Positions 21,915-47,405 of a stretch of DNA of 64,000 nucleotides are shown in pieces. A program made the position numbers and the translations under genes. The notes under the pieces were generated by a model that worked only from the letters and a program-made list of their open reading frames with translations, did not search any database and was not told the DNA's origin. Origin of the DNA: Escherichia coli (GTDB taxonomy: Bacteria; Pseudomonadota; Gammaproteobacteria; Enterobacterales; Enterobacteriaceae); assembly GCF_003334305.1 (NCBI RefSeq), contig NZ_QOWS01000017.1. One strand, written 5' to 3'. The number at the start of each line of letters is the position of its first letter. The stretch's first letter is position 1.

Positions 21915-23168
21915 ATGCTGGAACAAATGGGCATTGCCGCGAAGCAAGCCTCGTATAAATTAGCGCAACTCTCCAGCCGCGAAAAAAATCGCGTGCTGGA
22001 AAAAATCGCCGATGAACTGGAAGCACAAAGCGAAATCATCCTCAACGCTAACGCCCAGGATGTTGCTGACGCGCGTGCCAATGGCCTTGGCGAAGCGATG
22101 CTTGACCGTCTGGCACTGACGCCCGCACGGCTGAAAGGCATTGCCGATGATGTGCGCCAGGTGTGTAACCTCGCCGATCCGGTGGGGCAGGTAATCGATG
22201 GCAGCGTACTGGACAGCGGCCTGCGTCTTGAGCGTCGTCGCGTGCCGCTGGGGGTGATTGGCGTGATTTATGAAGCGCGCCCGAACGTGACGGTTGATGT
22301 CGCTTCGCTGTGCCTGAAAACCGGTAATGCGGTGATCCTGCGTGGTGGCAAAGAAACCTGTCGCACTAACGCGGCAACGGTGGCGGTGATTCAGGACGCC
22401 CTGAAATCCTGTGGCTTACCGGCGGGTGCCGTGCAGGCGATTGATAATCCTGACCGTGCGCTGGTCAGTGAAATGCTGCGTATGGATAAATACATCGACA
22501 TGCTGATCCCGCGTGGTGGCGCTGGTTTGCATAAACTGTGCCGTGAACAGTCGACAATCCCGGTGATCACAGGTGGTATAGGCGTATGCCATATTTACGT
22601 TGATGAAAGTGTAGAGATCGCTGAAGCATTAAAAGTGATCGTCAACGCGAAAACTCAGCGTCCGAGCACATGTAATACGGTTGAAACGTTGCTGGTGAAT
22701 AAAAACATCGCCGATAGCTTCCTGCCCGCATTAAGCAAACAAATGGCGGAAAGCGGCGTGACATTACACGCAGATGCAGCTGCACTGGCGCAGTTGCAGG
22801 CAGGCCCTGCGAAGGTGGTTGCTGTTAAAGCCGAAGAGTATGACGATGAGTTTCTGTCATTAGATTTGAACGTCAAAATCGTCAGCGATCTTGACGATGC
22901 CATCGCCCATATTCGTGAACACGGCACACAACACTCCGATGCGATCCTGACCCGCGATATGCGCAACGCCCAGCGTTTTGTTAACGAAGTGGATTCGTCC
23001 GCTGTTTACGTTAACGCCTCTACGCGTTTTACCGACGGCGGCCAGTTTGGTCTGGGTGCGGAAGTGGCGGTAAGCACACAAAAACTCCACGCGCGTGGCC
23101 CAATGGGGCTGGAAGCACTGACCACTTACAAGTGGATCGGCATTGGTGATTACACCATTCGTGCGTAA
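21915..23168 (+). CDS. proA: gamma-glutamyl phosphate reductase
   Basis: 417-aa ORF matching ProA. Confidence 0.95.
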
Positions 23169-23282
23169 ATAAAACCGGGTGATGCAAAAGTAGCCATTTG
23201 ATTCACAAGGCCATTGACGCATCGCCCGGTTAGTTTTAACCTTGTCCACCGTGATTCACGTTCGTGAACATGTCCTTTCAGG

Positions 23283-23358
23283 GCCGATATAGCTCAGTTG
23301 GTAGAGCAGCGCATTCGTAATGCGAAGGTCGTAGGTTCGACTCCTATTATCGGCACCA
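23283..23358 (+). tRNA. thrW: tRNA-Thr (anticodon CGU)
   Basis: 76-nt cloverleaf sequence GCCGATATAGCTCAGTTGGTAGAGCAGCGCATTCGTAATGCG...CACCA; anticodon loop tTCGTAAt. Confidence 0.9.
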
Positions 23359-23360
23359 TC
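23341..23360. repeat. att core, copy 1 (3' end of thrW): ctcctattatcggcaccatc
   Basis: Exact 20-bp repeat also at 35186-35205; 19/20 copy at 47261-47280. Confidence 0.8.
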
Positions 23361-23522
23361 CCCACTTCTTCAAACGTCCGTATTTGTCCGTAACCATACT
23401 GTTTTATAAAAGATTTTTTGTTCTTGTTGTCCGTATTAGTCCATAACCTTCCAGTAGAATCCAGTACTAAATGTGTATAGGATTATGTATATGTTCCTGT
23501 TCGACTTTGGAATTCTATACAC

Positions 23523-24692
23523 ATGCCCCTAAATGATATGCAGATTCGTCGTGCTAAACCTGAAGCTAAAGCCTATACACTTGGGGATGGGCAAGGGCTG
23601 TCTTTACTTGTAGAGCCAAATGGAAGTAAAAGCTGGCGATTTCGTTATCGCTATGCAGGTAAACCTAAAATGATCTCGCTTGGTGTCTATCCAACGATCA
23701 CACTTGCTGAAGCTCGTTCCCGTCGTGATGAGGCCCGAAAAATAGTGGCTGAGGGAAAAAACCCTAGTGAGGTACGAAAAGAACAAAAACTAGCATTAAG
23801 AATTCAATCTGAGAATGCATTCGAAAAGATTGCTAGAGAGTGGCATCGGATGAAGTCGTTAAAATGGTCTGCTGGGTACGCCTCGGATATTATGGAAGCG
23901 TTCCAGAATGATATTTTTCCGTATGTGGGAACGAGGCCTATAGGAGAAATTAAACCGCTAGAGCTGTTAAATGTACTGCGTAAAATTGAGAAGCGTGGCG
24001 CATTGGAGAAAATGCGAAAAGTACGGCAACGTTGCTCAGAAGTTTTTCGATATGCCATTGCTACCGGAAGAGCAGAGTTTAATCCTGCCGCAGATCTATC
24101 CAGTGCTCTCGAAGTACATAAATCAAATCATTTTCCATTCTTAAAATCAGATGAGATACCTGATTTTCTGCGTGCTTTAGATCGCTATACAGGGAGTCAA
24201 CTTGTCGTTATTGCTACGAAGTTATTGATGATCACGGGAGTAAGAACCATCGAATTACGTACCGCATTATGGTCAGAATTTGATTTGGATAACGCTATTT
24301 GGGAAATTCCTGCTGAAAGAATGAAAATGCGCAGGTCACATCTTGTTCCATTGTCGACTCAAGCGTTAGATTTACTTAATGAACTCAAGATAATGACAGG
24401 GAACTATCGTTATGTTTTTCCGGGGCGGAACGACCCGAACAAGCCTATGAGTGAGGCGAGTATAAATCAGGTTATCAAAAGGATTGGTTATGGCGGAAAA
24501 CTTACTGGACACGGATTTAGGCATATGATGTCTACATTGTTGCATGAACAAGGGTTTGATTCATTTTGGATTGAGATTCAATTAGCCCATGTAGATAAAA
24601 ATAGTATTCGTGGAACTTATAATCATGCGCTGTATTTAGAAAAGCGAAGAGATATGCTTCAGTGGTACTCTTCTTTTATAATGGAGCACTAA
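23523..24692 (+). CDS. int: P4-type tyrosine integrase
   Basis: 389-aa ORF directly 3' of the tRNA; P4-integrase-like N-terminus and C-terminal R/H-x-x-R/Y catalytic signature (…GHGFRHMMST…). Confidence 0.9.
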   Translation: MPLNDMQIRRAKPEAKAYTLGDGQGLSLLVEPNGSKSWRFRYRYAGKPKMISLGVYPTITLAEARSRRDEARKIVAEGKNPSEVRKEQKLALRIQSENAFEKIAREWHRMKSLKWSAGYASDIMEAFQNDIFPYVGTRPIGEIKPLELLNVLRKIEKRGALEKMRKVRQRCSEVFRYAIATGRAEFNPAADLSSALEVHKSNHFPFLKSDEIPDFLRALDRYTGSQLVVIATKLLMITGVRTIELRTALWSEFDLDNAIWEIPAERMKMRRSHLVPLSTQALDLLNELKIMTGNYRYVFPGRNDPNKPMSEASINQVIKRIGYGGKLTGHGFRHMMSTLLHEQGFDSFWIEIQLAHVDKNSIRGTYNHALYLEKRRDMLQWYSSFIMEH

Positions 24693-24693
24693 A

Positions 24694-26397
24694 ATGTATA
24701 TTGATAATGTGTATTTAAAAGGATTTAGGAACTATTCTGATAGTTTTGTAAAATTTAATTATTCAACTCTTATAATTGGTGGTAATGATGTTGGTAAGAC
24801 CAACTTATTGTATTCATTAAGGATTTTGTTGGATAAAAGCTTTTCGGATTTAGATTTAGAACCTAAAAATAGCGATTTTCATATTGATGCGAAAGGAAAT
24901 CAGTGTGAAGAGTTAGAAATAATAATTAATTTTCGTGAAGTAAAAGAGGATGCTGTTCTCTCTAAGTTAGCGGGGTATGTTAGTGATGATGCACAAACAT
25001 ACATCAAATATAAAGCATACAGAGCTACTCTTGATTACAAGTTATATATAGGCCACAAAGAATCTGAAATGGATGAGATTAGTGGCAGATTTTATCTTAA
25101 ATATTTAAATTTACGCTATGTGAATTCACAGCGAGACCTTGCTAAATATATATCTACAGAGAAAAAACATTTACTTCGGCTTGCTCAGGAAATGAGAAAC
25201 GAGGAGCAAGTGCGGAAGGATGAAAATACTTTGAATGAATTAACTAATTTATTAAATGATGTCAATGATAAGGTAAAAGAAATAAGCTACGTCTCGACCG
25301 CTACGGAAGAATTGAATGATGAGTTAAAGAAATTATCATATAACAATGAAAAGATTTCTGTAATGCTCGATTCTGGAGCAATTGGTGTTGATCAGTTTAT
25401 TGAAAAATTAGAGTTAAGTTCAAATACAAATGGAAAAAAGGTAATGCTTGGAGGGGACGGATTTAATAACCAAGTATTACTTGCATTATGGAAAGCCAAG
25501 AGTGTACGCGAGCACGATACTGAAAATGAAGTGGTTATATATTGTGTTGAAGAACCTGAATCACATCTTTATCCGCACCAACAGAGAAAATTATCTGAGT
25601 ATTTAATTAGTAAATTGCCGGGGCAGTCTCTAGTAACTACGCATTCTCCGCAAATTGCCATTAATTACTCACCAGATTCAATAATTAAAATTTGCTCTTA
25701 TAACGGTGAGTCTTACGCAGCAAGTGAAGGGTGTTCAGATTGCATAAGTAATGCCTGGAGTGGAATGGGATACAGGATGAGTATACTTCCTGCAGAGGCA
25801 TTCTTCGCTAATGTCGTATTCTTGGTCGAAGGGCCTTCTGAAATGTTATTTTATCAGGCCCTTGCAAAAGAGTGCCAAATTGATCTGGATTTCTTTAATA
25901 TAAGTATATTATCAGTTGATGGCGTTCAATTTGAAGTTTATAGAAAAATTCTTGATGCACTTGAGATTAAATGGGTTGCTCGTACAGATAATGATTCGTC
26001 TAAAGTTCCAAGGAAAAAAGAGTGGCAATATTCAGGTTTAAATCGAGCTTTGGCTCTATGTGGAATGGAGCCACTAAAGAATGAATTAACGGAAATATCT
26101 CAAGCTCAAAGAATAGAGAAACACAAAATTTATAAAGATAAGCTTAAACATCATAATATATTTGTTTCAATTAATGATCTCGAGGGTGATATTGGCGTTG
26201 AGTTAAGTACACAGCTGAAAGAATATGTAGGTGTTGATAATGAGGAAATTGCTGCTGATTATTTAAGAGGAAAGAAAGCAATAAGGATGCAAGAGTTCTT
26301 AGGTGAATACTCTTATGCACTGAAAAATATTTCAGACGGTGAATTAATTCAACCCCTTTTAACTGCTGTAAAATTGGCTACGGAAGAGTTGAGATGA
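24694..26397 (+). CDS. gajA: Gabija GajA-like protein: OLD-family ABC-ATPase plus TOPRIM nuclease
   Basis: 567 aa; N-terminal P-loop GGNDVGKTNLLYSL; ABC-like …VIYCVEEPESHLYPHQQRKL…; C-terminal TOPRIM-like …VVFLVEGPSEMLFYQ… and …ARTDNDSSK…. Confidence 0.75.
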   Translation: MYIDNVYLKGFRNYSDSFVKFNYSTLIIGGNDVGKTNLLYSLRILLDKSFSDLDLEPKNSDFHIDAKGNQCEELEIIINFREVKEDAVLSKLAGYVSDDAQTYIKYKAYRATLDYKLYIGHKESEMDEISGRFYLKYLNLRYVNSQRDLAKYISTEKKHLLRLAQEMRNEEQVRKDENTLNELTNLLNDVNDKVKEISYVSTATEELNDELKKLSYNNEKISVMLDSGAIGVDQFIEKLELSSNTNGKKVMLGGDGFNNQVLLALWKAKSVREHDTENEVVIYCVEEPESHLYPHQQRKLSEYLISKLPGQSLVTTHSPQIAINYSPDSIIKICSYNGESYAASEGCSDCISNAWSGMGYRMSILPAEAFFANVVFLVEGPSEMLFYQALAKECQIDLDFFNISILSVDGVQFEVYRKILDALEIKWVARTDNDSSKVPRKKEWQYSGLNRALALCGMEPLKNELTEISQAQRIEKHKIYKDKLKHHNIFVSINDLEGDIGVELSTQLKEYVGVDNEEIAADYLRGKKAIRMQEFLGEYSYALKNISDGELIQPLLTAVKLATEELR

Positions 26398-28016
26398 TAG
26401 ATTTTACCCATGAGCAAAAAGCAGCAATAGATTACCCATCTAGTATGGTATTGACGGCTTGTCCTGGAAGTGGGAAAACAGCAGTAATCGTAGAGAAGAT
26501 TGTCCGTGACTTGGTGGAATGCAAGGAATATCAGGGTGTTATTGCCATATCGTATACTAACAAAGCAAGCGATGAACTGAAAAAGAGATGTTTAAAGGCT
26601 ACTCCAAATTCAAAATCAAGCTTTTTTGGGACAATAGATAAATTTTATTTGACTGAAGTTATTTTACCATTCATTAAGCAATTATGGGGAAGAGTTGATG
26701 ACTTACATGTAGTTAAGCTTAATGAGTTAGCTTCTTCTGAAAAAGATAGGCTTTCTGCTTTTTTTAATGTCGAATTCATTTGTGAAAAAATTAATGAGTA
26801 TGATTTTAAGGATATAAAGGAACTATACGCCAATGGTATTCTAATACTGGAGTTTATACCATTGCTTGCATTTTATATATTGCGTAACTCGTTAGCATGT
26901 CGCCGATATATCGCTAAAAAATACACATCTATATATATTGATGAGTATCAAGATGCTGGATGTGTTCAGCATCTTCTTTTTCTTTATCTTTTCGAACTTG
27001 GAGTAAAAGCGGTTGCAGTTGGTGATGCTGACCAATCCATATATTCATATGCGGGTAAAAGTTCGAAATACTTAATGTCTTTACTGGATGAAAAAAGTGG
27101 CTTTGCCCCTTTTAAAATAACTATAAATCATCGTTCTCATTCATCTATAGTTAATTATGCTTCTCGATTGTTGAATGAAAACTGTGACTTGTTAATAACA
27201 GATGAAATTCGTGTCTACAGAAAAACTGTTAATGGTACTCAATGTGAAATAGCTAAGTGGATTGATGCTAATATTAACAATATTAAACGAAAGTTCAATA
27301 TTTCAAAAGAAAAAGAGATAGCGATACTTACTGCAACGAATAGTTCTGTCGCTTTAGTATCCGGCCTTATAAACTCCAAAGCAAGAGCATATCTTGATGA
27401 TGAGCTGTCTGTACTCGGTGGAGATGTGTCTCTCTTATTAAAGAACCTTTTGAATTATCGATTTAATAAAACGATTACAGCACAGGCTATCATTGAAAGT
27501 TTAAATTACAAGGTGCTAGAGAGGAATGCAATAAGAAAGATGAGGGGGGTTATTAGAGATGTGAGAGATTCTAATGACAACCAACTTATTCCTGATTTAC
27601 GTAAGGCAGTAAAATTATTAATCAACGCTGATATTTCTGCTAACCATATTGATGCCATTAACTCAATCTTACACAATAAAATGATGCTAAATAATTATTT
27701 ACCAGTTAGTGATGATGAGTTACAAATAATGACTTTACATAAAGCAAAAGGACTAGAGTTCGACTTTGTTTTTCATTTGGATCTTTATGATTGGATATTA
27801 CCGCGAAGGGAATATATAAAACATTGTTTTGATGAGGTTTTTTCACATTATGAGCAATGTCTGAATCTTCATTATGTTGGAGTTACTAGGGCCAAAAAAG
27901 CCGTGGTATTAATAAATTCTACTGAGCGTTTAAATTATCAGAGTGAATTAAAAAAAGCGAAACCATCTCAGTTCTTGTCACTAAAAGGACTTGAAAGTCT
28001 GTATAAAAAAATTTAA
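26394..28016 (+). CDS. gajB: Gabija GajB-like protein: UvrD/Rep-like SF1 helicase
   Basis: 540 aa; helicase motifs I CPGSGKT, Ia ISYTNKAS, II IDEYQDAG, V/VI …TLHKAKGLEFDFVFHL…; start overlaps the gajA stop. Confidence 0.75.
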   Translation: MIDFTHEQKAAIDYPSSMVLTACPGSGKTAVIVEKIVRDLVECKEYQGVIAISYTNKASDELKKRCLKATPNSKSSFFGTIDKFYLTEVILPFIKQLWGRVDDLHVVKLNELASSEKDRLSAFFNVEFICEKINEYDFKDIKELYANGILILEFIPLLAFYILRNSLACRRYIAKKYTSIYIDEYQDAGCVQHLLFLYLFELGVKAVAVGDADQSIYSYAGKSSKYLMSLLDEKSGFAPFKITINHRSHSSIVNYASRLLNENCDLLITDEIRVYRKTVNGTQCEIAKWIDANINNIKRKFNISKEKEIAILTATNSSVALVSGLINSKARAYLDDELSVLGGDVSLLLKNLLNYRFNKTITAQAIIESLNYKVLERNAIRKMRGVIRDVRDSNDNQLIPDLRKAVKLLINADISANHIDAINSILHNKMMLNNYLPVSDDELQIMTLHKAKGLEFDFVFHLDLYDWILPRREYIKHCFDEVFSHYEQCLNLHYVGVTRAKKAVVLINSTERLNYQSELKKAKPSQFLSLKGLESLYKKI

Positions 28017-28036
28017 TTACGTATCTTGGCGCGCAG

Positions 28037-28055
28037 TGCTCTCCCCGCCTCGCCC
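28037..28055 (-). other. P2/P4-type cos site (19-nt cohesive-end sequence)
   Basis: Reverse complement ggcgaggcggggagagcac differs at one position from the P2/P4 cos sequence as I recall it (GGCGAGGCGGGGAAAGCAC). Confidence 0.6.
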
Positions 28056-28219
28056 GCCCGCTTTGCGGGGCGGTTTTAATGCAGTTGCACTGACACGCTC
28101 AGACCGCGCCGGGAATGGCGCGGTCTGCAGAAAATGAGTCAGGAAAACGCATGCAAAGCCATGCACCTTATCGATGCATGGCTTTTTTCAGTAAAAACAG
28201 GCGGATTTTTCGGGGAGTT

Positions 28220-28792
28220 TTACACAGACTGACGTGATGCCAGTTCTGCACTTTTACGCGAAAAAATCATGTTCTGCGCAGGGGTGAATTTTTCACGGCT
28301 GTCATCCACCGAAGCCGCGTCAGGCCTGAATCCGATGGTCGTTAAAATGTCGCTATCCTGTGCGGAATAATTAATTTTTTCCCCCTTCGCAAGCCAGGAC
28401 AGAAGGGCTTCACGCAGGGCATCTGTGGCACGCTGTATGGCACAGTTTCGGGCAATGGCCGTCAGCTCACTGTAGCCCATCAGCTCCGGTGCCAGTGCGG
28501 CCGCCAGTGCTGTGCCGTGCTGCTGCATAAAATCATTCAGCCGCTCGCGGATGCTGATGTGCTGAACGGCTTCATGCGAACGAACATAACGACCGGCGGC
28601 CTGATTCACCTGCCATTTTCTGACTTCGATAATATTGCGTAATTCGTCCAGGCGACTGACGTTTCTGCCTTCCCCGGACAGAAGCCGCAGATATTCCTGT
28701 TCGGCTGCCGCCAGTTCATTTTTGCGCTGAAGCCATGCCGCTTTGTTATTCTGGCAGACCTCAAAAGCCTGCTGTAATGACATTGTGGTCAC
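28220..28792 (-). CDS. psu: P4 Psu (polarity suppression / capsid decoration protein)
   Basis: 190-aa ORF; …LQQAF..CQNNKAAWLQRKNELAAAEQEYLRLL… matches P4 Psu as I recall it. Confidence 0.85.
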   Translation of the reverse strand: MTTMSLQQAFEVCQNNKAAWLQRKNELAAAEQEYLRLLSGEGRNVSRLDELRNIIEVRKWQVNQAAGRYVRSHEAVQHISIRERLNDFMQQHGTALAAALAPELMGYSELTAIARNCAIQRATDALREALLSWLAKGEKINYSAQDSDILTTIGFRPDAASVDDSREKFTPAQNMIFSRKSAELASRQSV

Positions 28793-28806
28793 ACCCCGTC
28801 TCCTGA

Positions 28807-29052
28807 TTAATGGTTGAATGGTGAGCTGTAACAGCCTTTAACTTTTCGGACAACAGCCGGTGCTGTGCTTGCCGGTGCTGGTTTTTCCTCCGTGACCGGA
28901 GAACGAATCACGGCACAAATTGACTCATGCGTTTTAAATGTCGCCGAACAGTAAATATTCTGGCACTGCAGATAACTTTCTTTGACATTGTCACTCACAT
29001 ACCGGCTGGTGCGGGTATGCGCTGAATGACGACAGAAAGGGCAGCGCATCAT
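28807..29052 (-). CDS. Ogr/Delta-family zinc-finger late-gene activator
   Basis: 81-aa ORF with C-x2-C…C-x4-C pattern (MMRCPFCRHSAHTRTSRY…CQNIYCSATF) like P2 Ogr / P4 Delta. Confidence 0.85.
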   Translation of the reverse strand: MMRCPFCRHSAHTRTSRYVSDNVKESYLQCQNIYCSATFKTHESICAVIRSPVTEEKPAPASTAPAVVRKVKGCYSSPFNH

Positions 29053-29783
29053 GACAGCAGTCCTCTGGCCTTAAGCACTGCTCCCTGCTGGTCTATTTTG
29101 TCCTGCCACACCTTGCGCTGTGCCGGTGTGCCTGCCACCTCATAATCCATGTGCGGGAGTGTTGCCGCTGACAGTCCGGTCAGCCGGAGAACCGGCTCGC
29201 CGGTGAGGCTGATTTGCATCTGTTTTATTTTCTGTTCCAGCGATGATTTCACCTGCTGCATGACAGCTTTATCGGGTGCGACGTAGCCCTGATGGCCGGT
29301 GGTGTTGGCGAGCGGATTTTCCTGTACCAGGATACTCAGATGCATTGCCCGGACAAGCGCCTCACAGGTTTCATTCAGGGCGTGTTCCAGCTCATGCTCT
29401 GCATACAGACTCAGAAGGTGATGATGTGCCTTCCGGTAGGCGGTGGCCGTGCTGTCACACGCCCCTTTCAGGCGTTCACGTTCAAAATTCAGCACCACGG
29501 CCAGATTGTCATATTCCTGTACCAGCTCCCGGCGTGCCACGCGCTCAATGTGGCGCTGTTTCAGCTCATCGCTCAGGACACCACCGGCTGCACGAAAGGC
29601 CGTGCGCCAGTCGTCAGCGTCGTTTCCGTCGGCCTGCGCCAGCGCATTTTTTTCCTGCTCTGCCCGTTCAATGGCCGTAACGGTCTCATCCATCAGGCGG
29701 GCGTTCTCAAGATGGGCGGCTCTGGACTTTTCCAGTTGTGCCAGTGCGGGTTGCAGATATTCAGGGATAGTGTGGTCAGACAT
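29049..29783 (-). CDS. sid: P4 Sid (capsid size-determination external scaffold)
   Basis: ORF 29049-29849; start placed at MSDHTIPEYL... (244 aa); coiled-coil-rich. Confidence 0.8.
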   Translation of the reverse strand: MSDHTIPEYLQPALAQLEKSRAAHLENARLMDETVTAIERAEQEKNALAQADGNDADDWRTAFRAAGGVLSDELKQRHIERVARRELVQEYDNLAVVLNFERERLKGACDSTATAYRKAHHHLLSLYAEHELEHALNETCEALVRAMHLSILVQENPLANTTGHQGYVAPDKAVMQQVKSSLEQKIKQMQISLTGEPVLRLTGLSAATLPHMDYEVAGTPAQRKVWQDKIDQQGAVLKARGLLS

Positions 29784-29817
29784 TTTCCGGCTCCTCGTCA
29801 CTTCAGGTTGAGAAAAT

Positions 29818-29873
29818 TGTGACGTACACCGGACAACAACACGACGCATTGCAGATGTGCCAGCCCTGACACA
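29818..29873. promoter_or_regulatory. two TGT-N12-ACA Ogr/Delta-type activator sites in the divergent late-promoter region upstream of sid
   Basis: TGTgacgtacaccggACA (29818-29835) and TGTgccagccctgacACA (29856-29873). Confidence 0.55.
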
Positions 29874-29951
29874 GGAGACTCATCCTCAGACCGGCAAGCC
29901 AGGAAAAGGTCGCAGGAAAAACCGGCTTACTGTTTGTTTTTTTATATTTTA

Positions 29952-30057
29952 CTGTTCACCTCTGTTCACCATAAGAAAAAAGATAAGTAATACAGTAAGT
30001 TAAAGGGTGAACAATCGCAGTAATGACTGTTCACCGTCTGTTCACCACTGTTCACCC
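29952..30057. repeat. P4 ori-like iteron cluster (TGTTCACC repeats, both orientations)
   Basis: At least six copies of tgttcacc or its complement within about 110 bp. Confidence 0.7.
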
Positions 30058-30335
30058 GTTGATGGGCTTTTTGTGCTGTTTATTACTGTTTGTTTTTATT
30101 AATTCGCCGGGAATGAATAAGAAAAAACGATTTGTATTTCACTATAAAAATTACGAATTGCTTTAAGTGGCTTTAAATGACTTTAAGTGGAGATGAACAA
30201 AAAACACACAAGCATTGTAAGGCTGCCGGAACAAATCCCCCCTGTTGCGTCTGCTGAAAATATTCACAAAATAAAACGCTACCCGAAGCCGGACGGACTT
30301 ATCCGGTGCTGTATGGACATTAACGAGGTAGCCCG

Positions 30336-30602
30336 ATGCAAGCTGTTTTTTCTTCCCCGTCTCCTGCCCCTGTGACGCCACTGATGCCGCTGCCGGACAT
30401 CACACAGGAGCGTTTTTTACGTCTGCCGGAAGTGATGCACCTGTGCGGCCTGTCACGCTCGACCATCTATGAACTTATCCGTAAGGGGGAATTTCCGCCG
30501 CAGGTGAGTCTTGGCGGTAAAAATGTGGCCTGGCTGCACTCTGAAGTCACCGCATGGATGGCCGGGCGCATTGCCGGACGCAAACGGGGGTACGACGCAT
30601 GA
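30336..30602 (+). CDS. AlpA/Vis-family small DNA-binding regulator
   Basis: 88-aa ORF; …[34 protein letters not shown]… is the AlpA-type HTH. Confidence 0.65.
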
Positions 30603-30991
30603 TGATGCCCGCTCTGCAAAAAGTCCCTTTTTCTGGCTTGCCTTTTTCCGGCATTTGCGGATATAGTTTTTCCGTTGCCGCAAAATCGGCAGCCGGGCGT
30701 GAGAACCCGTGTAACTCGAAGGCGACATATGACGCGCCATGCGTCTTTTTTTGTGTCGCAATCAACGCCACAGAGCGCCAGATTATGGTGTGGCGTGTGG
30801 TTTGCCGTGCAGGTATGATCCTGTTCGCAATCGCATGTTATGCCACTGAGTCAATGGTAGCTCAGGCGGGGCAGCCTCCGGGCTGGCCGGTATTCTTCGA
30901 GGCCGGTATTCTCACCCCCGTCTGGGCTATCGCCATCGAGCGTGAGAACTCCGGCGATAGCAGTTATTTGCTACTCGAAGGAGGCTGCCTT

Positions 30992-31189
30992 ATGGCTACA
31001 ACCCTTACCCCCTCACACCCTGAATTTGTCTTTGTGTTTGCGGCTGTCCGTCGCGCAGACCGTCATCCCCGTATCTGCATGCTTCGCACCGTCGCCGGTG
31101 ATGAACGCAGCGCCCGCCGTTCCCTTGTCCGTGACTATGTGCTCTCCCTTGCTGCCCGTCTGCCGGTGGTGGAGGTGTCCCGTGCGTAA
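30992..31189 (+). CDS. small hypothetical protein of the satellite early operon
   Basis: 65 codons from an ATG with a strong upstream aaggagg RBS, inside the longer ORF 30554-31189. Confidence 0.35.
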
Positions 31190-31469
31190 TAAAAAAGCCC
31201 CTCAGACCGTCTCAGCACGTCATGACGCCCGTGAACACCTCAGCATTGAGGCTTACCATAAGCTCAACCGCGCCAGCTCCGTATCCCAGTTTGTTGGGGG
31301 TGATTTGATTCACCGTGAACTCTCCGGCCTGCATCAGCTCTACATTCCGCATATTTTCAGCTACCTGAATGAAGATATTGATTTTGTGCTGAATGAGCTG
31401 AAAGCCAAAGGCCTGTGCCGCGATTTTCTCGCCCAGCAGAAAGACCGGGGAGACAGGACGCATGTTTGA
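31182..31469 (+). CDS. small early-operon protein, 95 aa from a GTG start (possible P4 epsilon-like anti-repressor)
   Basis: Tail of ORF 30942-31469; GTG preceded by ggagg; the size matches my recollection of P4 epsilon, but the assignment is not verified. Confidence 0.3.
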
Positions 31470-31917
31470 TTTTCCCCAGCCCGGTGAGATTTACCGTTCT
31501 GCCGGTTTTCCCGATGTGGCCGTGGTCGGCATTCTGGAAGACGGTATTCCGTGGGAAATGCCGTACCGCTGCCCGGACATTGTCTGGAACCCGTACCGCC
31601 GTAAATTCAGTATCCTTGTGCGTATCCTCGCTGACGGACGCACCACAGACATCCCGCTGGGGCGTTTTCTGCGGGAATTTACCTGTGACCGTCCTGACCT
31701 GTTTAAACGCAGCCCCGTAAACCGGCATGCGGTACTGAAAGAAATGGCCGGAGACCCGGAATTACAGAAATGGCGGGAAAAATATCTGGATATTTACCCG
31801 CAGGCCCCTGTTCCGGTCAGCCGGGCGGCACCGGTGGCGCGGGAATGGCGGGAAATTCCCCGCACGGAGCCTGACCCGGAAATCACCCCGGATAACAGTT
31901 ACCGCAATTATCTGTAA
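31462..31917 (+). CDS. P4 orf151-like hypothetical protein
   Basis: 151-aa ORF in the position and of the size of P4 orf151, upstream of alpha. Confidence 0.5.
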   Translation: MFDFPQPGEIYRSAGFPDVAVVGILEDGIPWEMPYRCPDIVWNPYRRKFSILVRILADGRTTDIPLGRFLREFTCDRPDLFKRSPVNRHAVLKEMAGDPELQKWREKYLDIYPQAPVPVSRAAPVAREWREIPRTEPDPEITPDNSYRNYL

Positions 31918-32052
31918 TTAAAAAACGACACCCGAAAAATTAAATGTGCGTATTCGCGCAGGGATACGCACGTCTTCAGGAGACGCAGATATGCCTTATC
32001 AGTTAATGCAACCGGCACGGAATGCAGTCATCTGTCACAGGGAGGAAAGCAA

Positions 32053-32373
32053 ATGAAAACCCCCTTACCGCCCGTCTTACGCGCAGCCCTTTACCGTCGC
32101 GCTGTCGCCTGTGCCTGGCTGACCGTGTGCGAACGTCAGCACCGCTACCCGCATCTCACCCTTGAATCACTGGAGGCGGCCATCGCCGCTGAGCTGGAAG
32201 GCTTTTATCTGCGCCAGCACGGTGAGGAAAAAGGGCGTCAGATAGCCTGTGCCCTGCTGGAAGATTTAATGGAATCCGGCCCCCTGAAGGCCGCGCCGTC
32301 GCTGTCCTTTCTCGGGCTGGTTGTGATGGATGAACTCTGTGCCCGTCACATAAAAGCGCCGGTACTGCACTGA
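32053..32373 (+). CDS. P4 orf106-like hypothetical protein
   Basis: 106-aa ORF immediately upstream of alpha. Confidence 0.5.
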
Positions 32374-32387
32374 AGGAGAACAACACC

Positions 32388-34721
32388 ATGAAAATGAACG
32401 TAACCGCCACCGTCAGCCATGCACTCGGCCACTGGCCGCGTATTCTCCCGGCGCTGGGGATTCAGGTGCTGAAAAACCGTCATCAGCCCTGTCCGGTCTG
32501 TGGCGGGAGTGACCGCTTCCGTTTTGATGACAGGGAGGGGCGCGGCACCTGGTACTGCAATCAGTGTGGTGCCGGTGACGGCCTGAAACTGGTTGAAAAG
32601 GTGTTTGGTGTTTCCCCGTCCGACGCGGCCGCAAAGGTGGCTGCCGTGACCGGCAGCCTGCCACCGGCTGACCCGGCAGTGACGGCCGCCGCCGTTGCTG
32701 AAACAGACGCTGCCCGGAAGAACGCCGCCACACTGGCACAAACCCTGATGGCGAAAACCCGTACCGGAACCGGTAACGCCTACCTGACCCGCAAGGGCTT
32801 TCCCGGCCGGGAATGCCGGATGCTGACCGGCACACACAGAGCCGGTGGCGTGAGCTGGCGCGCCGGTGACCTTGTGGTGCCACTGTATGACGACAGCGGC
32901 GAACTGGTTAACCTTCAGTTAATCAGTGCTGACGGCCGTAAGCGCACCCTGAAAGGCGGACAGGTCAGGGGCACCTGTCACACCCTTGAAGGACAGAATC
33001 AGGCCGGAAAACGTCTGTGGATAGCGGAGGGATACGCGACCGCACTTACCGTACATCACCTGACCGGTGAAACGGTGATGGTGGCGCTTTCTTCCGTGAA
33101 CCTCCTTTCTCTGGCCAGCCTTGCCCGGCAGAAGCATCCGGCCTGTCAGATTGTCCTTGCCGCAGACCGTGACCTCAGCGGTGACGGCCAGAAAAAAGCC
33201 GCCGCAGCCGCAGATGCGTGTGAGGGCGTTGTTGCCCTGCCGCCGGTCTTCGGTGACTGGAATGATGCCTTCACGCAGTACGGCGGGGAGGCCACCCGTA
33301 AGGCCATTTACGATGCCATCCGGCCACCGGCTGAAAGCCCGTTCGACACCATGAGCGAAGCAGAGTTTTCCGCCATGAGTACCAGCGAAAAGGCCATGCG
33401 TATCTATGAGCATTACGGTGAGGCGCTCGCGGTCGATGCCAACGGCCAGCTTCTGTCTCGCTATGAAAATGGTGTCTGGAAGGTGCTGCCGCCACAGGAC
33501 TTTGCCCGGGATGTGGCCGGGCTGTTTCAGCGTCTGCGCGCGCCGTTCTCCTCCGGGAAGGTGGCCTCCGTGGTGGACACCCTGAAGCTGATTATTCCGC
33601 AGCAGGAAGCCCCCTCCCGCCGCCTGATTGGCTTTCGTAACGGTGTGCTCGACACACAGAACGGCACGTTCCACCCGCACAGTCCGTCACACTGGATGCG
33701 CACCCTGTGCGATGTGGATTTCACCCCGCCGGTGGACGGTGAAACGCTGGAGACCCACGCCCCCGCGTTCTGGCGCTGGCTTGACCGTGCCGCCGGTGGC
33801 CGTGCGGAAAAACGCGACGTGATTCTGGCCGCACTGTTTATGGTGCTGGCAAACCGCTATGACTGGCAGCTCTTTCTGGAGGTGACCGGTCCCGGCGGCA
33901 GCGGCAAAAGTATCATGGCCGAAATAGCCACCCTGCTGGCCGGGGAGGATAACGCCACGTCGGCCACCATTGAGACGCTGGAATCCCCGCGTGAACGTGC
34001 CGCGTTAACTGGCTTCTCACTGATACGCCTGCCGGACCAGGAAAAATGGAGCGGCGACGGTGCCGGACTCAAGGCCATCACCGGCGGCGATGCGGTGTCC
34101 GTTGACCCGAAATACCGGGATGCATACTCCACGCATATCCCGGCGGTGATTCTGGCCGTGAACAATAACCCGATGCGCTTCACCGACCGCAGCGGCGGCG
34201 TGTCACGCCGGCGGGTGATTATTCACTTCCCGGAACAGATAGCCCCGCAGGAGCGCGACCCGCAGCTTAAGGACAAAATCACCCGCGAGCTGGCGGTCAT
34301 CGTGCGTCACCTGATGCAGAAGTTCAGCGACCCGATGCTCGCCCGGTCACTGCTTCAGTCCCAGCAGAACTCAGACGAGGCGCTGAACATCAAACGGGAT
34401 GCCGACCCGACGTTTGATTTTATCGGCTATCTGGAAACCCTGCCGCAGACCAGCGGCATGTATATGGGGAACGCCAGTATCATCCCGCGTAATTACCGTA
34501 AATACCTCTATCACGCCTATCTGGCCTACATGGAGGCAAACGGCTACCGGAATGTACTCAGTCTGAAAATGTTCGGGCTGGGGCTGCCGGTGATGCTGAA
34601 GGAATACGGACTGAATTACGAGAAGCGCCATACCAAACAGGGGATACAGACCAACCTGACGCTGAAAGAGGAAAGCTACGGCGACTGGCTGCCAAAATGT
34701 GACGACCCTGCAACAACCTGA
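32388..34721 (+). CDS. P4 alpha primase-helicase (zinc-finger primase, P-loop helicase, C-terminal iteron-binding domain)
   Basis: 777-aa ORF; N-terminal CPVCGG…CNQCG zinc motif; Walker A GPGGSGKS in the central region. Confidence 0.9.
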   Translation: MKMNVTATVSHALGHWPRILPALGIQVLKNRHQPCPVCGGSDRFRFDDREGRGTWYCNQCGAGDGLKLVEKVFGVSPSDAAAKVAAVTGSLPPADPAVTAAAVAETDAARKNAATLAQTLMAKTRTGTGNAYLTRKGFPGRECRMLTGTHRAGGVSWRAGDLVVPLYDDSGELVNLQLISADGRKRTLKGGQVRGTCHTLEGQNQAGKRLWIAEGYATALTVHHLTGETVMVALSSVNLLSLASLARQKHPACQIVLAADRDLSGDGQKKAAAAADACEGVVALPPVFGDWNDAFTQYGGEATRKAIYDAIRPPAESPFDTMSEAEFSAMSTSEKAMRIYEHYGEALAVDANGQLLSRYENGVWKVLPPQDFARDVAGLFQRLRAPFSSGKVASVVDTLKLIIPQQEAPSRRLIGFRNGVLDTQNGTFHPHSPSHWMRTLCDVDFTPPVDGETLETHAPAFWRWLDRAAGGRAEKRDVILAALFMVLANRYDWQLFLEVTGPGGSGKSIMAEIATLLAGEDNATSATIETLESPRERAALTGFSLIRLPDQEKWSGDGAGLKAITGGDAVSVDPKYRDAYSTHIPAVILAVNNNPMRFTDRSGGVSRRRVIIHFPEQIAPQERDPQLKDKITRELAVIVRHLMQKFSDPMLARSLLQSQQNSDEALNIKRDADPTFDFIGYLETLPQTSGMYMGNASIIPRNYRKYLYHAYLAYMEANGYRNVLSLKMFGLGLPVMLKEYGLNYEKRHTKQGIQTNLTLKEESYGDWLPKCDDPATT

Positions 34722-34765
34722 CCCACCTGACCGGCATCTGCCGGTCTTTTTTTATCCCTGAATTC

Positions 34766-35070
34766 CCCGAAGGTGAACAATCCACTGTTCACCCTTCACC
34801 GTATATTCACCCGTTATCACACTGAAATTAAAAGAGAAAAACGAAAGGTGAACAGTGTGAACAATCAAATCAAAAAAAACTTTTTTCTTCCTGAGTGATT
34901 TCAGCACGGGAAATTAATCCCCTGCACAAGTCACACCGGCAGAATGCCGGAGGTGAAGAATCGAATGTTCACCCTTCACCCATTATTCACCACCTATCCA
35001 ACTGAAATAAAAGGAGAAAACAGAAAGGTGAACAGTGTGAACAGTTCTTTCGAAAAAAAATTTTTTTCTT
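34766..35070. repeat. P4 crr-like region: two tandem repeats of about 120-125 bp, each carrying TGTTCACC-type iterons
   Basis: Near-identical units beginning ccgaaggtgaacaatccactgttcaccc… and ccggaggtgaagaatcgaatgttcaccc…. Confidence 0.7.
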
Positions 35071-35185
35071 ATTTTTAATTGTGCGAAAAACAAGCGACAC
35101 ACGCAGTGTGTATAGATATGTGTATAGTTATATTTTTTGAATATTATAATGTATTACAAATCAATGTGTTAGCTTGTAATATTCA

Positions 35186-35205
35186 CTCCTATTATCGGCA
35201 CCATC
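35186..35205. repeat. att core, copy 2 (attR of the P4-like satellite and left boundary of element 2)
   Basis: Exact 20-bp copy of the thrW 3' end. Confidence 0.8.
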
Positions 35206-35808
35206 AAGAAAATCAATAACTTAGCTTAACTTCTCTAAGAAATTGTATCTTCTGTTATCACTTACAAACGCCTATACGTTGTTATGGGCTTTGGTAGTGT
35301 AACACGTATGGGCGAGTAGTTCCCAGGCTCAACCTCGTAACAAGTTCCTTTGAAGCTGGAAGACGTGCCACCGTCTCTAAACCTTCTACCAAAACTCTTA
35401 GCAAGATGTTCCACACCTGGCGCGGTGTCCAATGATGCTACACGTCGTGAGACGTTGCAGAGGATAAACAGGCTAAATGATGGGAAGAGTTTTAAGTGCA
35501 ATAGTGGATTAAAGCCCACCTCTTCAAAACCTAACTTGATCGGGAAAGAATCAAGCTCTAGCACGGTTTCGTCCACCGGAGTACAACGGGTGCCTGATAA
35601 GAGAAGAACTGCTAAGACTTCATAGCTTTTGTGAAAAAGCCCTTTTTAGTGGATACGCCTACGGCGCTTATTTTTTGGTATAACCATCAAAGGCGCTTTA
35701 TGGCTCCTATTGTCTTGAAAATGTATCTTTACTTGTATTGTGTTTTATGCGTAGTCTCCCTGTGTAGTATGTAACTTGTTAATTTTCATATGAATACAGA
35801 GGCACACG

Positions 35809-35967
35809 ATGAAAAACATTGCAGCTATCAAACGGAATAACCGCAAGATTCACGCTCGTAAGTTCCTGTCTACGCCAGAAGGAAAAGCCTGGCTAGAGCG
35901 TAAACAGAGAGAAAACGAAGAAAGAAAACTCCTTAGTGAGTTGAAATGGCTTAGAGAGGATTTCTGA
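35809..35967 (+). CDS. small basic hypothetical protein (52 aa), below the ORF-track size cutoff
   Basis: ATG preceded by an agagg RBS; translation MKNIAAIKRNNRKIHARKFL…. Confidence 0.3.
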   Translation: MKNIAAIKRNNRKIHARKFLSTPEGKAWLERKQRENEERKLLSELKWLREDF

Positions 35968-36310
35968 AAATCTCCAGAACGCAACAGGACGCATTCTAAC
36001 GCTGTTTTCATTACTCGGTATAGGGATTATAGGTGATGTGTGTTTAATGCGTCTGTGAGCTTGTTTTGTGCCTTATTTTGCATTTTCATAATGCAGGAGA
36101 GAACACGGAAAGCCTTAAAATTAATTATTGGGGTATTTAAGGCTATTTTTAGGTTATTTAAGGGTATTAAACTTGATTTAATTGATTGAAATATAAACAG
36201 ATAATTATGTATCTTATTGATTTATAAGGTTATTTTTAAATAAAGGTAAATAAAAAATAAATAGCCATAAATAGCTATAAATACATCTAAATACCTATAT
36301 CCCTTCCCTT

Positions 36311-36694
36311 ATGGCTAGATTGCGAGAAGTGCTTAACGCGATTTTCAGCGCCCCCCGATCTGGAAAATCCAGAATCCCCAAATATCAGCAAGGAATTTTC
36401 TTGCGTAATCAACATCGTTTTTACCTATTAAATCATTACACAGAAAGCCTTTCTGTAATGTCTCTCACTAAACTTTCACTAAACACGAGAATGATCGGTT
36501 TTATGTCGGATCAGATGCTAGAAATAGCACCACGTCTCACAAGGGCTGTAAGCGATGAAACCAGTGTTTATGCGGGTGCAGGTCAAAATATAGGCCAAAA
36601 TACATTTAACATAATAAACGTAATATGCACTAAGGAACACATAGAACGCCTTGAGTTGATGTATCAGGGGAAAAGTGGTGGATTTTTTACGTAG
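36311..36694 (+). CDS. hypothetical protein
   Basis: 127-aa ORF in an AT-rich region; no recognisable motif. Confidence 0.25.
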   Translation: MARLREVLNAIFSAPRSGKSRIPKYQQGIFLRNQHRFYLLNHYTESLSVMSLTKLSLNTRMIGFMSDQMLEIAPRLTRAVSDETSVYAGAGQNIGQNTFNIINVICTKEHIERLELMYQGKSGGFFT

Positions 36695-36720
36695 GAGCAC
36701 GAGAGGGCTTCTATTGACTT

Positions 36721-36999
36721 TTGTATGCTATGAAATATAATAGAAGGTTTTTTTATGTTGATAGTGATTGCACATTAAAGATTGAAAGCAAATTTAAACA
36801 TAAATTTTCAACACGTGAAAGAGAACTTGTTCGACAAATGATAAAACGTTTATTGAGCAACAATTTTGCAGTGATGCGCTATATGCCGAATTACACAAGG
36901 CTTTGCGAAAGTGATGTAAAAGTGAAGAAAGTAAGAATTGCAACTTTAAGCTACTTTTCATTGAATTTTTTAGTATGGAATTACACAGGAATAAGTTAG
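36721..36999 (+). CDS. hypothetical protein
   Basis: 92-aa ORF; no recognisable motif. Confidence 0.25.
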   Translation: MYAMKYNRRFFYVDSDCTLKIESKFKHKFSTRERELVRQMIKRLLSNNFAVMRYMPNYTRLCESDVKVKKVRIATLSYFSLNFLVWNYTGIS

Positions 37000-37085
37000 G
37001 GATATTCTATGATTTACACAGGGAATATAGGGGGATTATGGCACACACATAGAAAGACATTACACAAAGTGCTATGTGACAAATG

Positions 37086-37303
37086 GATGTAACGAGAGGT
37101 TACATTCAGCTATCTGAAATGCTCTCTGTAAGAAAGTTGGTAGTAACGATATGTTACATAGACTAATTATTGAATGTAACGATATTACACATCGGTAGTA
37201 ACGATACGTTACATCGACTAATTATTGAATGTAACGATATTACACATCGGTAGTAACGATACGTTACATCGACAGATGATTGGATGTAACGAAAGGTTAC
37301 ACA
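37086..37303. repeat. iteron/operator array: seven GTAACG-N4-5-GTTAC-type palindromic sites, including two perfect 57-bp tandem units
   Basis: Units ggtagtaacgata(c/t)gttacat…gaatgtaacgatattacacatc repeated head-to-tail; an AT-rich stretch follows at about 37310-37390. Confidence 0.7.
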
Positions 37304-38398
37304 ATAAGACTATATTATTTATAATACTAAATAAAACTATATTAGATTATTAATTAGATCATAATAATATTCTTTATATCTATATATATGATCTTTTGCC
37401 TTCCGGCGTTAGCTTCACTCCCTGGCAAGCAGCCTTACTCCGCTACCTTTCGGGCTACGTTGGCTGGCCCGTTCCGCTCACACCGAAAGCAAAGCGTTAC
37501 TTTCTTCGTGTAACTATCGTGGCGGTAACGCCCACGAAGAAATACTATTGCGCTGTGCGCAGAAGAGTAATCACCTAACCAATCATAGATTGCTTATGTG
37601 TTAACTCTCTCTACCTCTTAATTCCACTTCCTACATTTAATAACTCTGTTATTCTCTGTAGTTGTGTAATTACTCGAAGAGAGAGCGGCTAAAGCTCAAT
37701 TACACTCTGCTTTCCTCGTGTAAGTTCACTAAGCCTCAATACAATTTCACTTCCTACATTCTGTAGTCGTGTAATTGTTTTCGGTGGAAAAGCCAGAGGC
37801 GACACCGAAAGAGAATTCTGATCTTATTAATCTTATCTATCTTAGTTAATCTTCTTACTTTATCTACTTTATTATTAATAATAGCTTTATAAGCTCTGTG
37901 TAGCTCTCTGACGCAAGAAACAGCATTCAGGAAGGGAATCACCTTAGAAAAGGTGTTCTTTGCGTCATAATGTGTTTTATGAAGGATTCAGAGGTGTTTC
38001 ATAACAGGAATGTATAGAGGATATTTTAATTAATTAAAAATAAGGGGTCTAAATGCTTCTCTAACAACATTAAGCAGGGTAGGGAATGGAAACGCATTGC
38101 CTACATATAATAAGCTCACTACAGGGCTTTACAGAGCGTTTTATAAAGTGACTCTCTGTTTTATATTTACCATTACCTTTTCATATACCTAACAAATACA
38201 AAATAAGCCCCTTCAATAAGCCTCTGGCGAGCGAAACAGCCATTAGATAAGGGAATGTATTGCTTTTATCAAAATCTCGTCAGAATGCGATTGAGAGTGT
38301 TTTAGCGGATAATGAAGAATAGCACTACATAGAAGAGCACGAATTGTTAAGCAAAATCATAACATACTGAAAAAGATCAGTTTTTTTGTGAAAAGGTA

Positions 38399-38427
38399 TT
38401 GACAAACGTCTCTTTCTGTGCAATAAT
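38399..38427 (+). promoter_or_regulatory. sigma70-like promoter (TTGACA, 17-bp spacer, TGcAATAAT extended -10)
   Basis: Read directly from sequence; about 130 nt upstream of the 38555 ORF. Confidence 0.5.
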
Positions 38428-38554
38428 AGGTATTAGAGGGGACAGGAATAGATTCTTATCCTCTAAATAATTAAACCAATGCACCGCACTTTGAAGCCCA
38501 AGAGGCTTGCAAGGTGTTTTTTCTTTTAACCAAATCGAATAAGGAGGCTAATTA

Positions 38555-47260: not shown

Positions 47261-47280
47261 TACTCCTATTATCGCACCAT
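47261..47280. repeat. att core, copy 3 (degenerate, 19/20): actcctattatcgcaccatt
   Basis: One-base deletion relative to copies 1 and 2. Confidence 0.6.
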
Positions 47281-47405
47281 TAAAATCAAAGAGTTACCCC
47301 ATATTTAAATACACCACGTTTCCTCCTGTGCCGCATTTGTGCCATTGTAACCTTGGCAATTCATCAAAATACTGTTCTGACATCAGGCAGTGCAGGTGCA
47401 GCTAT

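Follow-up and report, generated by a model that had tools for sequence, protein, structure and literature searches.

The window, a stretch of 64,000 nucleotides of Escherichia coli DNA, carries at positions 23361 to 35205 an insertion of 11,845 bp. Its integration target was thrW, the tRNA-Thr(CGT) gene (23283-23358, plus strand; ARAGORN; Rfam tRNA, 71.8 bits), which remained intact after the insertion. The insertion is framed by a perfect direct repeat of 21 bp, ACTCCTATTATCGGCACCATC, which is made up of the thrW 3' end and 2 further nt; the attL core (23340-23360, plus strand) and the attR core (35185-35205, plus strand) were its only copies in the window, with a chance expectation of 0. An artificial empty-site junction, made by fusing positions 23060-23360 with 35206-35505, was found in one piece and with 100% identity in many E. 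coli chromosomes, and 393 genomes covered at least 80% of it. On this evidence, the att repeats are the true boundaries of the element, and the coordinates of the initial annotation, which had taken the interval for a complete P4-like satellite at thrW, turned out to be exact. The same search ruled out an extension of the element beyond 35205 into the low-GC region, which belongs to a distinct island that has an integrase of its own and a degenerate att site.

This neighbor is a 12-kb capsid-gene island lying in tandem with the satellite. An Rfam scan of 35 to 46 kb gave nothing meaningful, and an NCBIfam search with the proteins of the island gave no matches except for its integrase.

The first gene of the insertion, int (23523-24692, plus strand), encodes a P4-family tyrosine integrase of 389 aa with the Pfam domains Arm-DNA-bind_3, Phage_int_M, and Phage_integrase. 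Its full-length identity to P4 Int was 39%, with the catalytic R, HxxR, H, and Y all aligned, and its best NCBIfam match, NF007246, scored under the curated cut-off. A P22-type integrase was considered as well, since thrW is the att site of P22 and SfV, the protein has 389 aa, and the tRNA 3' end matches many lambdoid phage records; it was rejected on the domain composition and the full-length identity to P4 Int. The int-proximal att arm (23361-23522, plus strand), delineated by k-mer analysis in the reconstructed attP, contains TGTGTATAG repeats, one of which overlaps the ATG of int, along with three repeats of the TTGTCCGTA type. They are candidates for arm-type and accessory binding sites, and their layout parallels that of the P4 arm, in which the repeats are TTGGGGGCAT. 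The distal arm (35067-35184, plus strand) has two TGTGTATAG repeats, identified among the attP k-mers, and no homology to P4, which ends at 35066. P4 integrates at leuX rather than thrW, and int belongs to a thrW-specific lineage of P4-family integrases; a literature search on thrW-specific satellites found nothing useful. The difference from P4 had initially been confined to the cargo, which does differ, but the int/att module differs too.

From cos to crr, the DNA was approximately 97% identical to that of satellite phage P4 (NC_001609 / X51522; 11,624 bp), and the order and orientation of all the core genes were the same. The psu, sid, vis/alpA, epsilon, orf151, cnr, and alpha genes were intact, free of frameshifts, and 95 to 100% identical to P4 at the amino acid level. 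The early genes, all on the plus strand, are vis/alpA (30336-30602), coding for an excisionase and late-promoter regulator of 88 aa (98.9% identity to P4 ORF88; Pfam Phage_AlpA, E = 9e-21); an Icd-like/kil-eta open reading frame (ORF) (30599-31189; RefSeq annotation and NCBIfam phage_ICD_like); epsilon (31182-31469; helper derepression, 95 aa, 97.9% identity); orf151 (31462-31917; 98% identity); cnr, or orf106 (32053-32373; copy-number control, 100% identity); and alpha (32388-34721), whose 777-aa product, a primase-helicase and origin-binding protein, was 99.5% identical to P4 alpha and matched TIGR01613. The ori (29927-30190), identified by an iteron search and from the P4 annotation, has six TGTTCACC type-1 iterons (29953-30056) and three 10-bp type-2 repeats (30156-30190). 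The crr (34767-35066), identified by repeat and iteron searches and alignment to P4, consists of two 120-bp direct repeats (34767-34886 and 34947-35066) with type-1 iterons. All 11 exact TGTTCACC copies in the window (1.6 expected by chance) fell within ori (6) or crr (5), which bears out the ori iterons of the initial annotation.

The immunity region (30661-30985, plus strand), delineated with Rfam, comprises seqA (30699-30725), the CI RNA (30850-30937), which carries seqB (30889-30915), seqC (30942-30985), and an isrK-like leader (30674-30751). The matches were C4 RF01695 (74.3 bits) and c4-a1b1 (49.5 bits), both over their gathering thresholds, and isrK (67 bits). As in CI-RNA immunity, seqB is complementary to the upstream seqA and the downstream seqC, with energies of the cognate duplexes of -23.4 and -29.7 kcal/mol. 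P4 has in common with this element the immunity region as well as the ori type-1 and type-2 repeats, crr, the late promoter dyads, and cos, but it differs in seqA, seqB, and seqC, which carry compensatory changes. Because these immunity sequences co-vary, the CI allele is predicted to be heteroimmune to P4.

The cos cohesive-end sequence of 19 nt, GGCGAGGCGGGGAGAGCAC (28036-28054, minus strand), was located by alignment to the P4 end junction and the P2 left end. It matched both P4 and P2 at 18 of the 19 positions, the single difference being an A-to-G substitution in the overhang, and this variant was 100% conserved in nine genomes, strain A7 included. With a psu-side flank 96.5% identical to P4, it is a cos of the P2/P4 type, which the helper terminase would use for packaging. 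Beside it, a terminator scan and the alignment to P4 showed a GC-rich hairpin followed by TTTT (28054-28073, plus strand), which is conserved in P4 and is terminator-like for rightward int-gajAB transcription. The late genes on the minus strand are psu (28220-28792; polarity suppression and capsid decoration, 190 aa, 95% identity to P4 Psu), delta (28807-29052), and sid (29049-29783; capsid size determination, 244 aa, 98.8% identity to P4 Sid). A pattern search placed two TGT-N12-ACA dyads (29818-29835 and 29856-29873) in the Psid late promoter region (29818-29873) and a third one (30216-30233, plus strand) ahead of vis, at the PLL late promoter. In the window as a whole, this motif was no more frequent than expected by chance (16 found versus 14.8 expected). 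The late promoter with such sites that had been proposed initially is upheld by the clustering of the three dyads (29818, 29856, and 30216) within 416 bp and by their P4-homologous positions.

The DNA segment least similar to P4 is delta. The gene is present in the place originally assigned to it, but it required refinement: it is an allele of 81 aa encoding a single Ogr-like zinc-finger protein, a predicted late-gene activator, not the 166-aa tandem protein of P4, to whose N-terminal half it is 51% identical. The match to the Ogr family model NF007241 scored 80 bits, under the curated cut-off of 116. A truncation or pseudogene was nevertheless rejected, as the ORF is complete, its product has the Ogr-type four-cysteine motif (C-X2-C...C-X4-C) in addition to this subthreshold match, and Ogr/Delta-like genes of about 90 codons (273 to 276 bp) are annotated in sister elements too. 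The delta of phiR73 is a natural single-domain delta; a literature search on it found nothing useful.

Type A P4-like satellites are defined by seven core components (Moura de Sousa & Rocha 2022, PMC8628076). All seven, int, psu, delta (its N-terminal-half match), sid, vis/alpA, epsilon, and alpha, were found here by blastp against the P4 proteins at the identities given above, so that the homology to P4 on which the initial annotation depended for alpha, sid, psu, and int is present on alignment. The P4 gene order (int, hotspot/cos, psu-delta-sid, alpA, epsilon, alpha, att) was found as well, running as first described from int through the cargo, cos, psu, delta, and sid to alpha, crr, and attR.

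Such an element may be mobilizable by a helper. It could also be a cryptic immobile remnant that looks complete but is past excision and packaging and persists as a fixed chromosomal defense island. That reading would be in keeping with a cos cohesive end one position off P4 and P2, a delta of half length, a P4-like Vis next to an int and att unlike those of P4, and the absence of a P2 gpN match in 9 of the 15 other-strain carriers. It is at odds with the core ORFs, all of them intact, with the perfect att repeats, with a length close to that of P4, and with the comparably short Ogr/Delta-like genes of the sisters. Moreover, a near-identical element, cos variant included, was found at 99% identity or more in unrelated strains of numerous hosts, a distribution that speaks for recent spread by horizontal transfer. 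We consider a cryptic remnant rather improbable and prefer the potentially mobilizable satellite. Strain A7 gave a second match that only the P2 gpN portion of a combined query can account for, which points to a resident P2-family prophage; since the strain thus appears to carry a P2-family capsid gene, a helper may be resident.

Between int and cos lies the variable cargo slot (24671-28030, plus strand), the P4 defense hotspot, which was delimited by blastn against four sister loci (L003 to L006) and by junction sequences. Homology to these sisters breaks at 24670, 22 nt ahead of the int stop codon, and returns at 28025-28031, about 5 nt ahead of the cos cohesive end. In the P4 annotation, the cos-int interval contains gop, beta, and cII, as had been stated at the outset, while here the slot is filled, also as stated, by the Gabija pair, both proteins of which matched the PADLOC models over their full length. 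The gajA gene (24694-26397, plus strand) encodes an OLD-family ATPase-TOPRIM nuclease of 567 aa (PADLOC GajA, E = 9.7e-254, residues 1 to 564), and gajB (26394-28016, plus strand), which overlaps it by 4 nt, a UvrD-like SF1 helicase of 540 aa (PADLOC GajB, E = 3.4e-229, full length). The cassette was at least 99.6% identical in 16 genomes, the hosts being orangutan, chicken, human, cattle, tapir, mink, and deer.

The slot was also compared across related elements. Seven others had integrases 86 to 94% identical to the one described here, and in the same slot they carried, between them, cargo of four further kinds as well as two additional Gabija alleles. Sister thrW-type P4-like elements of other E. 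coli strains (L003 to L006 and L008 to L011), some of them degraded or interrupted by insertion sequences (IS), have the same att core and the same left and right cargo junctions, and their cargo is a SIR2 protein, an ORC/CDC6 ATPase, a UG7 reverse transcriptase with its partner, an ABC-three-component system (ABC-3C), a reverse-oriented hypothetical gene, or Gabija alleles with 62/49% and 27/24% amino acid identity. With six cargo types in the sisters, this int-psu locus adjoining cos varies in content among homologous elements, and different defense cargo occurs at the same junctions, as published for the P4 hotspot (PMC9122126).

The GC content of the cassette (32 to 37%) falls sharply relative to that of the P4 core (52 to 62%), from which it follows that the cassette is of foreign origin. 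The same drop could be taken as a sign of an independent, transposon- or integron-like insertion instead of homologous exchange between satellites. Such an event has only a slim chance of being the explanation, as gene annotation and a repeat search revealed no transposase, IS element, or terminal repeats in or next to the cassette, its junctions are the same to the nucleotide as those of the other cargo types in the sisters, and long conserved homology extends on both sides. Most likely, the cassette would have come by recombination between related satellites, through homologous flanks provided by the 3' end of int on one side and the cos-psu region on the other.

GajA combines an N-terminal ABC-type ATPase with a C-terminal TOPRIM domain of the OLD family, and the UvrD-like SF1 helicase is encoded directly downstream in the same operon. 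The Gabija system of Bacillus cereus VD045 (PDB 8J4T, 8SM3, 8U7I, and others) has the same two-gene organization, and Walker A, Walker B, TOPRIM, and helicase motifs I and II are in common. GajA aligned with the B. cereus structures over residues 3 to 510 (E = 2.6e-34; GKT, EEPE, and EGPSE motifs), and GajB aligned with E = 1.1e-35 (GSGKT and DEYQD). The B. cereus system is, however, a remote sequence relative only (phmmer E of about 1e-34), its GajB has 494 aa versus 540 aa here, and it resides in a chromosomal defense island, not in a satellite hotspot. That the pair is instead a non-Gabija OLD nuclease and UvrD protein serving the satellite itself, in replication, recombination, or helper interference, for example, could be suspected from the low identity to the experimentally characterized system and from the main text of PMC9122126, where this allele does not figure in the set of systems cloned, but it is hardly credible given the full-length matches to Gabija-specific PADLOC models, the gene overlap like that of canonical gajAB operons, the label Gabija given to the cluster by Rousset et al. 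(PMC9122126), and the occupation of the slot by unrelated defense genes in the sisters and by gop-beta-cII in P4, which also indicates that the slot is dispensable for satellite functions. Judged by these sequence features, the slot carries a bona fide Gabija pair, with a predicted role in defense.

Cargo and int are directly contiguous: the gajA ATG lies 1 nt past the stop codon of int, and the gajA ribosome-binding site (RBS) lies inside the final int codons. Neither sigma-70 promoter candidates specific to gajAB nor candidate terminators inside the operon were more frequent than in shuffled sequence, and gajAB are probably transcribed together with int. In the thrW-integrase lineage, all the co-oriented defense cassettes examined, seven different ones at seven distinct loci, start within a short interval that reaches from 8 nt upstream to 7 nt downstream of the stop codon of int, and each brings its own last 6 to 10 Int codons, containing the cargo RBS. 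A stronger proposal would be that the cassettes form an obligatory operon with int, their expression being set by an Int/Vis-regulated int promoter or by thrW read-through and switched off upon satellite induction. We regard it as possible but unlikely; if it were true, helper and satellite DNA would be spared from Gabija during the hijacking cycle.

Taken together, the region is very probably a structurally intact, integrated Type A P4-like satellite carrying Gabija, with entry at thrW by its own integrase, a life cycle like that of P4, and cassette exchange. The element would have entered the 3' end of thrW by site-specific recombination through this P4-family integrase. From its near-identity to P4, we infer that in the lysogen the CI RNA would pair with seqA and seqC, so that early transcription is terminated and the element is silent. 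In the presence of a P2-like helper, epsilon would derepress the helper, delta and the helper Ogr would fire Psid and PLL, and Vis and Int would excise the element, Vis being 99% P4-like and the int/att module heterologous. Alpha would replicate the element from ori and crr, Sid would redirect the helper gpN to small capsids, which Psu would decorate, and the helper terminase would cut cos and package the genome of about 11.8 kb. By homology to B. cereus Gabija, GajA and GajB would form a GajA4-GajB4 complex attacking invading phage DNA (PMC8136825, PMC10781630, PMC10822852), and the satellite would protect both its host and itself from non-helper phages.

The anti-phage hotspot between psu and int of P4 adjoins cos (Rousset et al. 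2022, PMC9122126). Table S1A of that study lists the exact protein pair found here (WP_021546002 and WP_024236189), and Gabija is system #6 of Table S1B, with 153 loci in the P4 psu-int hotspot. Since protein pair, position, and neighboring genes are the same, the window is one such locus or an exact sibling from strain A7, and the arrangement was already known: the initial reading of a Gabija-carrying P4-like satellite is correct but had been catalogued. That study does not describe the thrW lineage of integrases, the direct succession of int and cargo, or the immunity allele. The hotspot, with Gabija in it, having been published in 2022, no new principle emerges from the present locus. Its value is that of a reference locus in which the junctions of att, cos, and cargo are defined exactly, the integrase belongs to a thrW-specific lineage, and the CI allele is predicted to be heteroimmune. 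Clean and annotated throughout, it illustrates how a phage satellite can act as a carrier of exchangeable anti-phage systems.

A 21-bp sequence (ACTCCTATTATCGGCACCATC), which comprises the final 19 nt of the tRNA-Thr(CGT) gene thrW (23283-23358, by ARAGORN and Rfam) plus 2 nt, occurs exactly twice in the 64 kb, at 23340-23360 and 35185-35205, with no copies expected by chance. For an empty-site test, positions 23060-23360 were fused to 35206-35505 and searched against complete E. coli genomes. The junction was found as a single piece with 100% identity in many strains, and it was covered to at least 80% in 393 genomes. Since the uninterrupted junction exists in other genomes, the limits proposed in the initial annotation for a complete P4-like satellite, 23361-35205, are the true ends and delimit an insertion of 11,845 bp precisely. 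The whole window occurs unchanged in the chromosome of E. coli A7 (NZ_CP028767.1), in which proB is followed by proA and then thrW.

In four of the thrW-type P4-like loci of other E. coli genomes (L003, L005, L006, and L008), the element is not first but lies behind a prophage, or what remains of one, with tail-fibre, pinE, and related genes, and homology to the window then starts at 23313, within the 3' half of the tRNA; thus, thrW often carries tandem arrays of elements. In the window, a second integrative island of ~12.1 kb and ~36% GC (35206 to ~47283) stands in tandem with the P4-like element. It ends on the right in a tyrosine integrase of 425 aa (45842-47119, minus strand), beyond which the att sequence recurs a third time in degenerate form (ACTCCTATTATCG-CACCAT, 47264-47282). 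Its other products include a protein with weak Rep/O-like similarity (38975-39718), a major capsid protein of the lambda gpE type (41838-42869; Pfam Phage_cap_E, E 4e-14) that shares just 23-25% identity with any phage in the collection, a protein of 612 aa that matches the PHROG 'tape measure' (E 4e-54) but no Pfam family, and a Dit-like tail protein (45047-45760); neither a portal nor a terminase was seen in the island. The ~3.3 kb at its left end (35206-38555) is AT-rich, with one annotated gene (52 aa), no ORF above 127 aa, and no Rfam match, and may consist of decayed genes or of non-coding DNA. Of 5,426 complete E. coli genomes, 227 contain at least 80% of the island, which could represent either a satellite-like element not described before or one that has degraded.

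The core of the P4-like element was compared with phage P4 by megablast and blastn, which gave two collinear blocks of ~97% identity (P4 4291-10436 against window 35066-28930, and P4 10903-11624 against 28777-28055). Protein identity to P4 was 99.5% for alpha, 100% for cnr/orf106, 98.0% for orf151, 97.9% for epsilon, 98.9% for vis/ORF88 (a Phage_AlpA protein), 98.8% for sid, and 95.2% for psu, which bears out the P4 homology asserted for alpha, sid, and psu. The ori iterons, the dyads, and crr likewise sit where they had been placed from the sequence. Of the 11 exact TGTTCACC iterons in the window (1.6 expected), six belong to ori and the other five to crr; three 10-bp type-2 repeats are at 30156-30190, and the two 120-bp crr repeats are at 34767-34886 and 34947-35066. 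TGT-N12-ACA dyads occur upstream of sid (29818 and 29856) and of vis (30216). Over the whole window, the frequency of this motif was not above chance, and the three dyads are meaningful because they are clustered and homologous to those of P4. The reverse complement of the P4 left end (GTGCTTTCCCCGCCTCGCC), to which the P2 left end is identical, aligns to 28036-28054 (GTGCTCTCCCCGCCTCGCC) with one substitution, and the P4 homology runs ~8 nt further before ending. This variant cos and its flanks are 100% conserved in nine genomes (strain A7 and eight others) from different hosts.

The delta gene is a second small variable spot (28778-29030): it encodes a single Ogr-like zinc-finger protein of 81 aa, whereas P4 delta has a 166-aa tandem form, found also in L003, L004, and L010. 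In L006, L009, and L011, Ogr/Delta-like genes of 273-276 bp (~90 codons) are annotated on the other side of psu. In the immunity region, the CI RNA (30850-30937; Rfam C4 family, 74 bits) and its a1b1 and isrK-type leader (30661-30751, Rfam) were recognized. Compared with seqA/seqB/seqC of P4 (TTCACAGG / CCTGTGAA / TTCACAGG), those of the element (CTCGAAGG / TCTTCGAG / CTCGAAGG; 30699-30725, 30889-30915 within the CI RNA, and 30942-30985) carry coordinated, compensatory substitutions. Cognate duplexes retain their pairing energies (-23.4 and -29.7 kcal/mol), while duplexes formed across with the P4 sequences are weaker by 6-9 kcal/mol, and the element is therefore predicted to be heteroimmune to P4, with a distinct immunity specificity.

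The 389-aa integrase has the P4-type domain architecture and aligned catalytic residues but shares only 39% identity with P4 Int. Integrase exchange among P4-like elements is frequent (PMC8628076). The reconstructed attP carries four TGTGTATAG repeats around the core, one overlapping the int start codon, in a layout that mirrors the TTGGGGGCAT arm repeats of P4. At 80-100% nucleotide identity, this int was detected in 528 of 5,426 complete genomes.

As had been proposed, the int-to-cos interval, which in the P4 record holds gop, beta, and cII, is occupied here by a Gabija pair. The PADLOC GajA model matched gajA (24694-26397) end to end (E 9.7e-254), and the GajB model matched gajB (26394-28016; E 3.4e-229). 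Most of each protein can be aligned with its solved Bacillus cereus Gabija counterpart (E ~1e-34), and the ATPase, TOPRIM, and helicase motifs are conserved. The GC content is 32-37% over the cassette versus 52-62% in the P4 core. The exact cassette (at least 99.6% identity) was present in 16 genomes, adjoined by the integrase every time. As for mechanism, we rely on published B. cereus and P. aeruginosa work, in which GajA acts as a DNA nicking endonuclease that nucleotides inhibit, GajB recognizes DNA ends and hydrolyzes (d)ATP and (d)GTP, and the two form a GajA4-GajB4 complex (PMC8136825, PMC10781630, PMC10822852, bioRxiv 10.1101/2023.05.02.539174). A 2025 preprint proposes that Gabija stops incoming linear DNA that lacks RecBCD from circularising (PMC12407980).

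The variability of this interval among thrW-integrated P4-like elements was upheld by a comparison of eight sister loci, whose Int proteins are 86-94% identical and whose att core is the same. In the slot they carry a SIR2 protein, an ORC/CDC6 ATPase, a UG7 reverse transcriptase with a partner, an ABC-three-component system (two loci), a reverse-oriented hypothetical gene with IS66, or one of two other Gabija alleles (62/49% and 27/24% amino-acid identity). Alignment of four of the loci to the window shows homology ending on the int side at 24670 (24637 in one) and, in the three with a match to the cos-psu flank, returning at 28025-28031. In all seven co-oriented cassettes (window 24671-24700; L003-L006, L010, and L011), the first codon of the cargo falls somewhere from 8 nt ahead of the int stop to 7 nt past it, and within this thrW-integrase lineage the final 6-10 Int residues of co-oriented loci vary with the cassette; the exception is L009, with cargo in the opposite orientation and a 90-nt gap. 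The cargo start at the int stop and the cassette-specific Int end suggest that int and cargo form one co-transcribed operon. They also suggest a recombination junction inside the 3' end of int.

The psu-int hotspot beside cos was described by Rousset et al. 2022 (PMC9122126), whose Table S1A has rows with exactly WP_021546002 plus WP_024236189, the RefSeq proteins annotated in the window, and whose Table S1B counts 153 occurrences of system #6, 'Gabija (Doron et al., 2018)'. The reading of a Gabija-carrying P4-like satellite is thus correct and already known.

A query combining 1.3 kb of gajB and the P2 gpN gene matched two places in strain A7, while the cassette alone matches one place per genome; the extra place can stem only from the gpN part, which indicates a P2-family capsid gene, and with it a P2-family prophage as candidate helper, elsewhere in A7 (NZ_CP028767.1), outside the window. 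The same second place was seen in 5 of the 14 other carriers listed. We infer that the element may be mobile: in addition to this candidate helper in A7, its core genes are all intact, its att repeats are perfect, its genome is 1.9% longer than that of P4, and unrelated strains hold near-identical copies.
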